Assembly: GCF_022846255.1 (NCBI RefSeq) | Contig: NZ_AP025682.1 | DNA: 64,000 bases | Origin: Escherichia coli | GTDB lineage: Bacteria > Pseudomonadota > Gammaproteobacteria > Enterobacterales > Enterobacteriaceae | Strand: one strand, 5' to 3' | Part shown: in pieces, positions 45,473-50,479 of the stretch | Layout: each line of letters begins with the position of its first letter | Numbering within the stretch: the first letter of the stretch is position 1 | Position numbers and translations under genes: made by a program | Notes under the pieces: generated by a model | What the model saw: the letters and a program-made list of their open reading frames with translations, nothing else | Database searches by the model: none | What the model was told of the DNA's origin: nothing

Positions 45473-46139
45473 GCTAATGCTCCTTAATAAAAGCGTAATG
45501 GGATGTTAATGGAGATGAAAGCAGTGGATCTCATTGCCATCTGCATTTTCGCATAGCGTATATCGCTGGCTATGACTAATCAATTAGTGAAAAATTTTTA
45601 TTTAATCTGTTTTTGTAGATAAAATATTCCGTAACGGCGCGTTTTTTGTACATTGTGGATTTTTACATGCCGGTATGATTTATTTTTAATTAAATCAATT
45701 GGATATGTGTTTACCTTTATTTTCACTCATGAAGGTTTGGGGGGGAGGTAACGCTATAAGCGTAGAGAATTCGGTGTATGTAGTGATCGGGTCATTTTCA
45801 GCATTTTTTATGCCAGATAATGTACATTGACAGCAGAAAGCACCAGTGAGTGATGTTTTCTTTTATTCTGTTGAGTTGCATTTTTATTCACTTTGGTTTT
45901 GTCAGGCTTGCGGAATTAGCGAGCAGAGAGCGCCGCTCTGTTCACCAATAACCTAAATTACTCATCAAAATGGCTAATATATAATCTTGAAATTATTCTG
46001 AGAGTTTCAGAAAATAACAGCTGAAATAATCTCGTGCAGGACTGTAAATAGATTAAATTTTGTGGAAATATAATAAGTGATCGCTTACACTACGCGACGA
46101 AATACTTTTTTGTTTTGGCGTTAAAAGGTTTTCTTTATT

Positions 46140-46544
46140 ATGTCCGTAATGTTACAAAGTTTAAATAACATTCGCACCCTCCGTGCGATGGCTCGCGAAT
46201 TCTCCATTGACGTTCTTGAAGAAATGCTCGAAAAATTCAGGGTTGTCACTAAAGAAAGACGTGAAGAAGAAGAACAACAGCAGCGTGAACTGGCAGAGCG
46301 CCAGGAAAAAATTAGCACCTGGCTGGAGCTGATGAAAGCTGACGGAATTAACCCGGAAGAGTTATTGGGTGATAGCTCTGCTGCGGCACCACGCGCTGGT
46401 AAAAAACGCCAGCCGCGTCCGGCGAAATATAAATTCATCGATGTTAACGGTGAAACTAAAACCTGGACCGGTCAGGGCCGTACACCGAAGCCAATCGCTC
46501 AGGCGCTGGCAGAAGGTAAATCTCTCGACGATTTCCTGATCTAA
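46140..46544 (+). CDS. stpA: H-NS paralogue nucleoid protein / RNA chaperone
   Basis: 134 aa [32 protein letters not shown] with C-terminal DNA-binding region; preceded by a 667-bp AT-rich leader. Confidence 0.95.
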
Positions 46545-46590
46545 TTACTGAGGCCGGATGCCGCTGCTATGGCGCGTCCGGCGTCGCTTC

Positions 46591-47115
46591 TCAAGCTCGT
46601 TGGTTCCACGGCATCTTATCTAACAATCTTGCCATTCCACAAAAACCACTAATTCCTGCAAACAGTAACCCAGCACCAACAAAGCCGCTTAATAAGAAGA
46701 AAACGCTATTTACGGTATAACCCAGTACAACGCCGATTAATATTAAACCACCCGCGGCGATCTGCACCTGGCGCATTAACGGCAAGGGTTGGGATTTATT
46801 TACCGCTACTGGCAATCCTGCTTTTTTCCAGCCATCAATCCCATCTTCGAGTAAAAAGATTTCTGCGGGGGCGGCAATCGCTGCTAATTTATCGGCGTTA
46901 TTACTGGTGCGTTTACCTGCCTGGCAGTGGAATATAATTTGCTCGCGACGTAATTTAGGCGGAAGACCTGACTGTTCCAGTACGGATAATGGAGCCAGAT
47001 CTGCTTCAGGAATATGTTCACGAAGATATTCATCAGCATCACGAATATCGATTAACTTTGCGCCGCGTGCGATTAATTCTTGTGCATCATGCGGCGAAAT
47101 GGTTGTCAAAGCCAT
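46591..47115 (-). CDS. ygaP: Membrane-anchored rhodanese (thiosulfate sulfurtransferase)
   Basis: 174 aa; rhodanese active-site Cys loop (FHCQAGKRT) and C-terminal TM segments. Confidence 0.9.
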
Positions 47116-47124
47116 AGTGACTCC

Positions 47125-47424
47125 TTACGGACAATAGACATTTTTCAGGGTGGCGATAATGGCATTTACCGCCTCATTTTTAATGGAATATAGAATGCGT
47201 TGGGCATCCCGTTGGCTGTCGATAAGCCCTTCGCCCCGCATACGAGCGAGATGCTGTGATGTCGCAGAGGCACTCAGTCCGGTAATGCGCGTCAGCTCTC
47301 CCGCGCTGGTGCCGGGGGAACCGCTAAGCATACACAGAATCAGCAATCGTTTAGGGTGGCTCATTGATTTCAATAAGGCCGCTGCCTGTTCGGCACTGGC
47401 CTGTAATTGTGCGAGTTCAGTCAT
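47125..47424 (-). CDS. ygaV: ArsR/SmtB-family transcriptional repressor
   Basis: 99 aa winged HTH; immediately upstream of ygaP on the same strand (operon). Confidence 0.9.
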   Translation of the reverse strand: MTELAQLQASAEQAAALLKSMSHPKRLLILCMLSGSPGTSAGELTRITGLSASATSQHLARMRGEGLIDSQRDAQRILYSIKNEAVNAIIATLKNVYCP

Positions 47425-47606
47425 AGTTATTTAAGTAATTTCTAAATTAAGTAAACTCTAAACTAAGAGTGCAACATATACCAGCATCAGCAGCGTAAAT
47501 GAGAGTAAAAGCGTAAGCTGAAACTGGCAGGCTCCGATAAAATTACTACGCTTAAGAGATAAAATCTCTTTTTAAACAATGAGTAATTTTCTTATAGGGA
47601 GTACAT

Positions 47607-47765
47607 ATGGGTTTCTGGAGAATCGTCATCACCATCATTCTGCCGCCGCTCGGCGTGCTGCTCGGTAAAGGGTTCGGTTGGGCGTTCATTATTAATATTC
47701 TGCTGACACTGCTTGGCTATATCCCCGGTTTGATTCACGCGTTCTGGGTGCAAACCCGCGATTAA
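47607..47765 (+). CDS. yqaE: Pmp3/UPF0057-family small membrane proteolipid (52 aa)
   Basis: ATG at 47607 preceded by RBS gggag; translates MGFWRIVITIILPPLGVLLGKGFGWAFIINILLTLLGYIPGLIHAFWVQTRD; absent from the supplied ORF track, presumably for being under 60 aa. Confidence 0.88.
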   Translation: MGFWRIVITIILPPLGVLLGKGFGWAFIINILLTLLGYIPGLIHAFWVQTRD

Positions 47766-47848
47766 ACCTGTGCTCACCCCCGCGGCGTTAACGCGCCGCG
47801 TTCCTCTGCTACACTTTCTGAGTGTTTCCGTTAACGAATGAGGTAGCT

Positions 47849-48298
47849 ATGGGTCTGTTCAATTTTGTGAAAGATGCCGGAGAAAAACTCTGGGACGCGG
47901 TTACAGGTCAGCACGATAAAGACGATCAGGCGAAGAAGGTGCAGGAGCATCTGAACAAAACCGGTATACCTGATGCCGATAAAGTGAACATTCAAATTGC
48001 CGACGGCAAAGCGACGGTCACTGGTGACGGCTTAAGTCAGGAGGCGAAGGAGAAAATCCTTGTTGCGGTGGGGAATATTTCCGGTATTGCCAGTGTCGAT
48101 GATCAGGTGAAAACGGCGACACCAGCCACTGCCAGCCAGTTTTATGCCGTTAAGTCTGGCGACACTCTGAGTGCCATTTCCAAACAGGTCTACGGTAACG
48201 CTAATCTGTACAATAAAATCTTCGAAGCGAATAAACCGATGCTAAAAAGCCCGGATAAAATTTACCCGGGGCAAGTGTTGCGTATTCCTGAAGAGTAG
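47849..48298 (+). CDS. kbp: Potassium-binding protein with BON and LysM domains
   Basis: Start at [15 protein letters not shown] inside the longer ORF (47822..48298); C-terminal LysM (also called ygaU). Confidence 0.92.
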
Positions 48299-48961
48299 TT
48301 AATTGCCAGCCATCGCCTGCTGGATAATGGGAATCGGCGTCAGCAAATGCTGGCGCATTAACTCACTGGCGCGCGCGGCATCCCGCGCCAGCACAGCTTC
48401 GGTTAAAATTTGATGTTGGTTGTGTTTATCTTCCAGCATTTCCACGGAAAGTACCGTTCGCCGCAGCCAGATGAAGCGATAGCGCGCCGCCAGATCAAAC
48501 AACCGTTCACGCATTTGCAGCAAATAGTGAGAACCACAGCCTGTCACAATTGCAGTATGAAACGCCTGATGACGCAGATCCCACTCATCAAGCATTTTCT
48601 CACTGGCGTCACAGGCCTCAAGCTTACTGAGCAGATGCGCCTTCGCAAGAACGTCTGCCTCCCACTCATCACTACCGCGGGCAATCGCCAGGCTTACCAG
48701 CATCGCTTCCATATTGGCACGGGCATCGAAAATATCGAGCAGCTCCTGCTCTGACATAGACGCCACCCGATACCCTTTTTGATTCACCACCGTGACCAGT
48801 CGTTCTGCCACCAGTTGCGAAAGCGCTTCCCGCAACGGCCCAACGCCAAGTGCATAACGCGATGTCAGCAAACTCATCCGTAATTTTTCATCCGGCTGAA
48901 AATTGCCGCGAATAATATCGTTCTTCAGCCAGCGATAGCCATCCAGAGAGGTAATGGTCAT
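48299..48961 (-). CDS. csiR: GntR/FadR-family repressor of the csiD-lhgO-gabDTP operon
   Basis: Start at MTITSLDGYRWL inside the longer ORF (48299..48979). Confidence 0.9.
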   Translation of the reverse strand: MTITSLDGYRWLKNDIIRGNFQPDEKLRMSLLTSRYALGVGPLREALSQLVAERLVTVVNQKGYRVASMSEQELLDIFDARANMEAMLVSLAIARGSDEWEADVLAKAHLLSKLEACDASEKMLDEWDLRHQAFHTAIVTGCGSHYLLQMRERLFDLAARYRFIWLRRTVLSVEMLEDKHNQHQILTEAVLARDAARASELMRQHLLTPIPIIQQAMAGN

Positions 48962-48981
48962 GGTGTGACTCCTGATCATTA

Positions 48982-50382
48982 TCAGCGCGTATTATGAATG
49001 GGTGTTTTTTGCCACATTATCAGCTTTTTCCAGCGAGCCATAATTGGCACGGTACAGATAATCCCAATCGCTAATAAGCCGGTGGAGAGCACTTCTAACT
49101 GTTGCGCCGGGCGGAATAGCATCACTACCAACACAAAGGTAATAAAACCGATTACCAGCCAGGTGAGCCACGGATAAAGCCACATCCGCAGGCGAATTTC
49201 GCTTCCTTCTGCTCGCAGAATTTTGCGCATCCGCAATTGTGAAACGGCGATGACTAAATAAACCAGCAGGGCGATAGCGCCGGAGCTGTCGATCAGAAAT
49301 TTAAACACCTTCGCAGGCGCGTAATAGTTCACCACCACCGTTAAGAATGCCGCGCCGGTGGAGAGTAACACCGCCACGTACGGGGTTTTACTGCGGTTGA
49401 TTTTACCCATTACCGCGGGAGCATCACCGCGACGGCTTAAGGAGTAGAGCATCCTGGAAGCGGTATACAGCGCCGAGTTCAGGCAACTGGTTACGGAAAG
49501 TAATATCACGCAGTCCATGATTAATTTCGCATGAGGAATATTGAGCAATTCCAGAACCGAGCGATAAGAACCAACGGCTTTCAGCCCCGGCATATTCCAC
49601 GGGATTAATGCCACAACGACAAAAATAGAACACAAATAGAAAATAGAGATACGCCAGATAACCGAGTTGGTGGCGCGGACAATATGTTTTTCCGGCGTGT
49701 CGGATTCCGCGGCGGCAATGGTGACAATTTCTGCGCCCATAAACGAGAACATGGTGATCAACATCGCGCTTAATACCGCACCGAAGCCGTTGGGCATAAA
49801 GCCGCCGCTATCCCACAATCTTGAAATACCGCTCACGTCGGCATACGGGTAAAAACCGCTAATTGCGACTGCACCAAGGAAAATAAAGGCCAGGATAGCG
49901 ATGACTTTACACAGCGCCAGCCAGAACTCAAATTCGCCGTAGTTTTTAACGCTTAATAAATTACTGCCGGTTAAGGCGAGGGTAATGACGAGGGAAAATA
50001 ACCAGATGGGAATGCCTGGAACCCACGAGTGCAGGATCATGGCGGCGATGTTGGCTTCAAGTGGGATAACCAGTACCCAAAACCACCAGTACAACCAGCC
50101 GATGGTATAGCCCGCCCAGCGGCCAATGGCTTTATCGGCATAGGTGGAAAACGAACCGGTATCAGGCGTGGCAACTGCCATTTCCGCCAACATCCGCATA
50201 ATCATAACCACCAGTAATCCGGCGAACAGATAGGCCAGTAATACCGCCGGGCCCGCTTCGGCGATGGCGACGCTGGAACCGACAAACAGACTTGCGCCGA
50301 TAACACCGGCAATAGACAACATGGTGACGTGGCGTGACTTCAGCCCGCCGCCTAACTCATGTGGTTGCGATGATTGCCCCAT
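48982..50382 (-). CDS. gabP: Gamma-aminobutyrate permease (APC family)
   Basis: Start at MGQSSQPHELGGGLKSRHV, 21 codons inside the longest ORF (48982..50445). Confidence 0.93.
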   Translation of the reverse strand: MGQSSQPHELGGGLKSRHVTMLSIAGVIGASLFVGSSVAIAEAGPAVLLAYLFAGLLVVMIMRMLAEMAVATPDTGSFSTYADKAIGRWAGYTIGWLYWWFWVLVIPLEANIAAMILHSWVPGIPIWLFSLVITLALTGSNLLSVKNYGEFEFWLALCKVIAILAFIFLGAVAISGFYPYADVSGISRLWDSGGFMPNGFGAVLSAMLITMFSFMGAEIVTIAAAESDTPEKHIVRATNSVIWRISIFYLCSIFVVVALIPWNMPGLKAVGSYRSVLELLNIPHAKLIMDCVILLSVTSCLNSALYTASRMLYSLSRRGDAPAVMGKINRSKTPYVAVLLSTGAAFLTVVVNYYAPAKVFKFLIDSSGAIALLVYLVIAVSQLRMRKILRAEGSEIRLRMWLYPWLTWLVIGFITFVLVVMLFRPAQQLEVLSTGLLAIGIICTVPIMARWKKLIMWQKTPIHNTR

Positions 50383-50479
50383 CCTGAATCCTCTCGAAAG
50401 TGTGTCACTTGGGAGAGCGCCCCGACATTTCCCGCGTCGGGTCACGCGTGTAATTGTTATTGATTCTTTTTACCGGAGA

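Follow-up and report, generated by a model that had tools for sequence, protein, structure and literature searches.

The open reading frame at positions 47607..47765 on the plus strand of the analysed Escherichia coli DNA is yqaE, an already known, annotated and published gene, and nothing about it is novel. Its product is a small membrane protein of the Pmp3/UPF0057 family. Throughout this text, the window refers to the whole 64-kb stretch of DNA that was analysed. Taken as a whole, we consider it highly probable that the locus is best explained by the yqaE identity together with a Pmp3-type membrane hairpin, regulation by CpxR and CyaR, and a role in membrane potential and cation handling.

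Reading frame and gene identity

The coding sequence (CDS) of yqaE starts with ATG, comprises 52 codons followed by a TAA stop, and was recovered by listing all open reading frames (ORFs) down to a minimum length of 20 aa, with the translated product MGFWRIVITIILPPLGVLLGKGFGWAFIINILLTLLGYIPGLIHAFWVQTRD. A Shine-Dalgarno sequence, GGGAG at 47597..47601 (plus strand), was read from the sequence 5 nt upstream of the ATG, and an in-frame TAG is located four codons upstream of the start (47595-47597). Since this stop codon leaves no alternative start further upstream, the start of yqaE is unambiguous. The initial annotation had described a 52-codon ORF with a good ribosome-binding site, which was borne out by these positions. 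It had also stated that the gene is missing from the ORF track, with an antisense ORF shown instead, and this is literally true at the default listing threshold of 60 aa. With this setting, a 61-aa antisense ORF is the only one displayed over the yqaE DNA; the absence of yqaE is a threshold artefact, because the track omits ORFs of fewer than 60 codons. Judged from the Pfam match (E=2.7e-19) and the strong purifying selection in relatives, both described below, the yqaE ORF is no chance ORF. No specific Ribo-seq or proteomic data on YqaE came up in a literature search.

The proposed membership of the product in the Pmp3/UPF0057 family was upheld by an HMM search of the translation. PF01679 (Pmp3) was matched by the sense product with 69.3 bits (E=2.7e-19, gathering cutoff of 22.9), and the alignment covered yqaE residues 3-48 and profile positions 2-47 of 49. 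Homologous proteins fell into 906 clusters, and PF01679 was present in 120 of 120 among the clusters listed. No specific NCBIfam model was matched by the yqaE product. A sub-threshold similarity to MscL (12.5 bits vs a cutoff of 225), which reappeared weakly in the PDB sequence search, was rejected, as it reflects hydrophobic composition.

Translated from the window, yqaE shows 100% identity to WP_000508177.1 of RefSeq (“YqaE/Pmp3 family membrane protein”), and the corresponding CDS has an equal length and position in E. coli D8 and K-12 DH1, where it lies between the divergent ygaV and kbp. The gene order at the locus, stpA, ygaP, ygaV, yqaE, kbp, csiR, and gabP, is common to the window and annotated E. 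coli. Shared gene order and an identical protein together mean that the window is an E. coli-type chromosome segment in which yqaE is already annotated. Compared to K-12 yqaE (b2666), the protein, the gene order, the region from −40 to +44, and the CpxR box are all shared; within the CDS, K-12 DH1 and the window differ by two synonymous changes (L33, TTG/CTG, and G37, GGG/GGC), and a few single-nucleotide polymorphisms are found in the upstream intergenic region. There is no functional difference between the two.

A 551-bp stretch around yqaE was matched in 5417 of 5426 complete E. coli genomes with identities of 95-99.5%, always on the chromosome, and the features annotated under the match were yqaE (YqaE/Pmp3 family membrane protein), kbp, and ygaV. 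The yqaE region had no match in 9 of the 5426 genomes. A separate case is E. coli OkiPb01684 (NZ_AP042519.1), where the region is split over two places, the best of which covers 59% of the query; the match pattern suggests that the yqaE locus of this strain is interrupted by an insertion or rearrangement. Relative to the complete E. coli genome that is closest to it (99.5% over 551 bp), the window differs at three positions, 47438, 47516, and 47537, all of them in the intergenic region between ygaV and yqaE and none in yqaE.

Conservation and selection on the reading frame

A search of one genome per species yielded 80 yqaE-like loci. The reading frame had been expected to be conserved in related genomes, and this view was upheld by the loci from related Enterobacterales, where the ORF has exactly 52 codons in 45 of 47 cases and 53 codons in the other two, both from Klebsiella. 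The ATG and a GGAG-type Shine-Dalgarno sequence 5-8 nt upstream are retained in nearly all of these 47 loci. Variation among the 45 distinct nucleotide sequences is distributed unevenly over the codon, with 26, 6, and 49 variable columns out of 52 at the first, second, and third positions, and mean pairwise differences per site of 0.17, 0.02, and 0.53, respectively. The median pN was 0.069 vs a pS of 0.695, and the resulting pN/pS of ~0.10 indicates purifying selection on the YqaE protein. An equivalent 52-codon ORF was also present in most of the recovered loci from Pseudomonas, Stutzerimonas, Rhodobacteraceae, Rubrobacter, and cyanobacteria; in those of Pseudomonas, Rhodobacteraceae, and cyanobacteria, it comes with an ATG start and a Shine-Dalgarno sequence of the GGAG type.

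With regard to the neighborhood, kbp separates yqaE from csiR in E. coli, Salmonella, and other Citrobacter, and is missing from this place in E. albertii (locus L002, 2660-2742), Citrobacter youngae, and Citrobacter sp. R56. In Enterobacter, Klebsiella, and Serratia, yqaE is found in unrelated neighborhoods. The occurrence of yqaE without an adjacent kbp or within these other neighborhoods means that it is not functionally tied to kbp.

Several start codons in and around the locus deserve attention. The longest ORF for kbp starts with GTG at 47822 and encodes 158 aa (47822-48298), and the RefSeq protein of 149 aa corresponds to the ATG at 47849 with GAGG at 47840-47843. The longest ORF for gabP likewise starts with GTG and encodes 487 aa (48982..50445, minus strand) vs a RefSeq CDS of 466 aa (1401 nt). 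Longest-ORF starts over-extend both genes. For Enterobacter yqaE, many public calls are ~79 aa long, being extended N-terminally to upstream in-frame starts (P0030, P0032, P0037, P0080, and others; L016, L020, L045, and L046). What is conserved within these extended calls is the 52-codon ORF, which is preceded by a GGAG Shine-Dalgarno sequence of its own, and from this arrangement the ~79-aa starts are probably mis-annotated.

Protein architecture

YqaE has the architecture of a Pmp3-type protein, with 52 aa (the family ranges around 50-60 aa), two hydrophobic helical segments, and a short loop. With hydropathies of 1.6 and 1.75, the two segments are strongly hydrophobic; charge is confined, with histidine counted, to R5, K21, H44, R51, and D52. 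An alignment of 51 sequences, taking in Proteobacteria, cyanobacteria, and others and thus several phyla, has the invariant residues M1, R5, P13, P14, G16, V17, G22, F27, N30, L33, T34, L36, G37, Y38, P40, G41, and H44. Both motifs of the Pmp3 family are found in YqaE, namely PP..G in the first segment and GY(I/F)PG..H in the second. An AlphaFold2 model based on this alignment predicts a helical hairpin with helices at residues 3-21 and 25-51 (mean pLDDT of 87.3, pTM of 0.54). The modelled helices are unbroken and, at 19 and 27 residues, long enough to cross the bilayer.

Regulatory sites and transcript structure

Upstream of yqaE, a CpxR-type tandem box of the form GTAAA-N5-GTAAA (GTAAATGAGAGTAAA) is located at 47495..47509 (plus strand), starting 112 nt 5′ of the ATG. 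The 64-kb window contains this exact motif only once, against a chance expectation of 0.08. In 33 of 48 sequences (the window and the 47 related loci), a perfect box lies on the same strand and begins 90-118 nt 5′ of the ATG. Among the carriers are Salmonella, Citrobacter, Enterobacter, Kosakonia, Phytobacter, and Pluralibacter, also in cases in which the neighbor genes are different. In published work, yqaE is listed as CpxR-dependent with an annotated, footprinted CpxR site; an activator footprint of CpxR at yqaEp was described under gentamicin and copper, and the inhibition of LolCDE was reported to induce yqaE along with cpxP and spy.

A consensus scan returned no sigma-70 promoter above threshold, which is compatible with an activator-dependent promoter. 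The hexamer TAAAAT at 47538-47543, approximately 30 nt 3′ of the CpxR box, could be a −10 element. Directly 5′ of this hexamer, the window carries an A at 47537, where D8 and K-12 have a C.

A second regulatory site covers the start of the gene. Pairing of the small RNA (sRNA) CyaR is predicted for 47594..47619 (plus strand), which spans the Shine-Dalgarno sequence, the start codon, and codons 2-5. The CyaR sequence was taken from K-12 (NC_000913.3), and its nt 34-52, a single-stranded region, gave a predicted duplex with 47594-47619 of −20.6 kcal/mol, a value equalled by none of 1000 shuffled targets. A duplex prediction with full-length CyaR was discarded in favor of this single-stranded seed region, as it opened the terminator of CyaR itself. 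The −40 to +44 region of yqaE is identical between the window and K-12, where yqaE is an established CyaR target with a 70-fold enrichment in MS2-CyaR pull-downs and where a yqaE ribosome-binding site fragment, Hfq-bound and degraded by PNPase, has been published. As read from the DNA, the window thus contains both a CpxR box and a CyaR site, matching the published regulation. An Rfam scan of 46000-49500 with E up to 1 found no riboswitch, leader, or antisense RNA family; a match to mir-190 (E=0.39, 23 bits vs a gathering score of 48) was dismissed as chance.

Downstream of the gene, RNA folding gave a GC-rich hairpin of 8 bp at 47781..47800 (plus strand), which lies 16 nt 3′ of the yqaE stop codon, between yqaE and kbp. 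It consists of CGCGGCGU-UAAC-GCGCCGCG and is followed by UUCCUCUGCU rather than by a U-run. The hairpin was not called a terminator by the consensus scan, and no canonical terminator was found after yqaE. The sole terminator-like site of the scan falls within kbp, on the minus strand, and has no relevance for yqaE. The hairpin may be a weak or partial terminator or attenuator before kbp, or a 3′ structure that stabilizes the mRNA; yqaE may also be co-transcribed with kbp.

In the scheme that results from these motifs and from published experiments, phosphorylated CpxR would bind the tandem GTAAA box during envelope or inner-membrane stress and activate the transcription of yqaE. CyaR, which is cAMP-CRP-dependent and Hfq-bound, would pair across the Shine-Dalgarno sequence and the first codons and thereby repress the translation and the mRNA stability of yqaE.

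Alternative explanations

The roles of the two strands could in principle be reversed, with the antisense ORF at 47592..47777 (minus strand, 61 aa, GTG start) as the real gene and the sense ORF as incidental. This antisense ORF is the sole one of at least 60 aa over the yqaE DNA and remains uninterrupted in both the window and E. coli D8; however, it is intact in only these 2 of 46 sequences, contains internal stops in 31 of 48 (the window and the 47 loci), and has lost its GTG start in another E. coli (GTA) as well as in E. albertii (GCG). Its product matches nothing in Pfam or NCBIfam, there is no RefSeq annotation on the minus strand at this place, and substitutions concentrate on the third positions of the sense frame. 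The product has a GRAVY of −1.28, being hydrophilic because it mirrors a hydrophobic sense gene. In agreement with its earlier description as implausible, the antisense ORF is no gene of its own; it is a by-product of the sense gene and due to chance, and we give the reversed reading practically no weight. Hardly more credit is due to the idea that the 52-codon ORF acts mainly as a regulatory leader for kbp and not as a functional protein itself. In favor of such a leader, yqaE precedes kbp by 83 nt in the same orientation, with only a hairpin lacking a U-run in between, but it is the amino acid sequence of YqaE that is under selection, the protein family spans phyla, and yqaE is kept without the adjacent kbp in the E. 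albertii and the two Citrobacter genomes named above and in quite different neighborhoods in Enterobacter, Klebsiella, and Serratia. A toxin of the type I kind, i.e., a small hydrophobic membrane toxin restrained by an sRNA, would agree with the size and hydrophobicity of YqaE, with repression at the ribosome-binding site by an Hfq-dependent sRNA, and with the fact that yqaE was studied alongside TisB-induced genes. This reading is very unlikely as well: CyaR is a trans-encoded sRNA with multiple targets rather than a dedicated cis antitoxin, the Rfam scan gave no antisense RNA family around the gene, yqaE is a single-copy core chromosomal gene (5417 of 5426 E. coli genomes), and the family, which confers stress-protective phenotypes, is conserved in bacteria as well as in plants and fungi.

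A more serious alternative leaves the gene as it is and concerns the topology of its product. YqaE might be monotopic or re-entrant, with its helices kinked at the invariant PP and GY(I/F)PG so that they dip into one leaflet, and belong to a larger membrane complex as an accessory subunit, in the manner of PscF/Ric1 in the green-sulfur-bacterial reaction center. By sequence, the sole solved relative of YqaE found in the PDB is indeed the PscF/Ric1 protein (7ueb_F / 8gwa, E=0.0013), with which it shares the motifs ilPP and G(Y/W)iPG. A 2025 paper (PMC12136403) reports the Pmp3 protein in green-sulfur-bacterial reaction-center structures to be monotopic in both, and gives an AlphaFold2 prediction of a monotopic fold for C. 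elegans PMPL-1. Invariant proline and glycine residues in the middle of both hydrophobic segments point in the same direction. On the other side, the AlphaFold2 helices of YqaE are unbroken and of bilayer-spanning length (19 and 27 residues, pLDDT of 87.3), and the classical description of the Pmp3 family holds two transmembrane segments. A Foldseek search of the YqaE model against the PDB, a method that is unreliable at 52 residues, gave no match with E<1 and did not return 7ueb_F; its best geometric likeness, the two-helix V-ATPase subunit e (TM of 0.67, E=6), was set aside as no evidence of homology. All in all, we regard the monotopic arrangement as possible, though rather unlikely. Of the earlier description as a two-helix membrane protein, the two helices stand, supported by the model (3-21 and 25-51), while two bilayer-spanning passes are contested for the family.

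Likeness to known relatives and function

The preferred reading remains that of a very hydrophobic, 52-residue helical-hairpin proteolipid, which would insert into the cytoplasmic membrane and, as inferred from the literature, would adjust the membrane potential and the tolerance to Na+/K+, as Pmp3 does in yeast and RCI2 (LTI6) in plants. These two belong to PF01679 as well, and have ~52-57 aa with two hydrophobic helices and a short loop as in YqaE; all three are regulated by stress and have been connected with membrane potential and the tolerance of Na+. Unlike its yeast and plant relatives, YqaE is bacterial, resides in the inner membrane, and is under the control of CpxR and CyaR.

Physiological data on YqaE were reported by Kwok et al. 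(2020). As summarized in PMC7835403 and PMC9006882, this work found a NaCl-sensitive phenotype of the yqaE deletion and linked YqaE to membrane potential. In the review PMC7835403, the deletion is described as rendering E. coli sensitive to low and high NaCl. This review adds that a dinoflagellate homologue complements the low-NaCl sensitivity of E. coli without YqaE, and that yqaE expression drops in 200 mM KCl, a response opposite to that of the yeast and dinoflagellate homologues, which rise. The expression of the Pmp3 family is said to increase as the membrane potential falls, according to PMC9006882. In a TisB study, the survival of a yqaE deletion in terms of CFU was not significantly different from the wild type.

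For a hairpin of 52 residues, the possible modes of action are an oligomeric leak, an organization of lipids, and a docking onto a larger complex. Most likely, YqaE would oligomerize in the membrane or dock on larger membrane proteins and so alter cation leak or transport under envelope stress; such an effect on cation flux, exerted through a partner or an oligomer, is our favored reading at moderate confidence. Two further family members serve as points of comparison. PscF/Ric1, part of the Chlorobaculum reaction center-FMO supercomplex (7ueb chain F, 8gwa), is a distant relative of YqaE and a stable, reportedly monotopic subunit of a photosynthetic complex (PMC12136403), whereas no partner complex is known for YqaE. 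PMPL-1 of C. elegans, a Pmp3-like protein of the family to which YqaE belongs, forms a cation channel together with PEEL-1 and thereby shows that cation-conducting assemblies can draw on a Pmp3 protein; however, its activity needs the nematode-specific toxin PEEL-1, and yeast Pmp3 is no substitute (PMC12136403). It has no direct bearing on E. coli. By analogy with PscF and with PMPL-1 and its partner, YqaE might be, rather than a two-pass modulator of membrane potential that acts on its own, a Cpx-induced monotopic or re-entrant accessory subunit that docks on a specific inner-membrane transporter or respiratory complex and alters its cation conductance, a proposal that we consider improbable.

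Significance

The locus illustrates how a minimum ORF length of 60 aa conceals a genuine, well-conserved gene, while an antisense ORF without meaning is displayed in its place. The reverse error exists in public data, where longest-ORF rules over-extend starts, as in Enterobacter yqaE with its ~79 aa. These lessons are methodological and bring no new biology. The gene itself was already known to belong to the Cpx envelope-stress regulon and to the CyaR targetome. If the docking of YqaE as an accessory subunit were true, it would provide a concrete mechanism for the long-uncharacterized Pmp3 family in a tractable organism.
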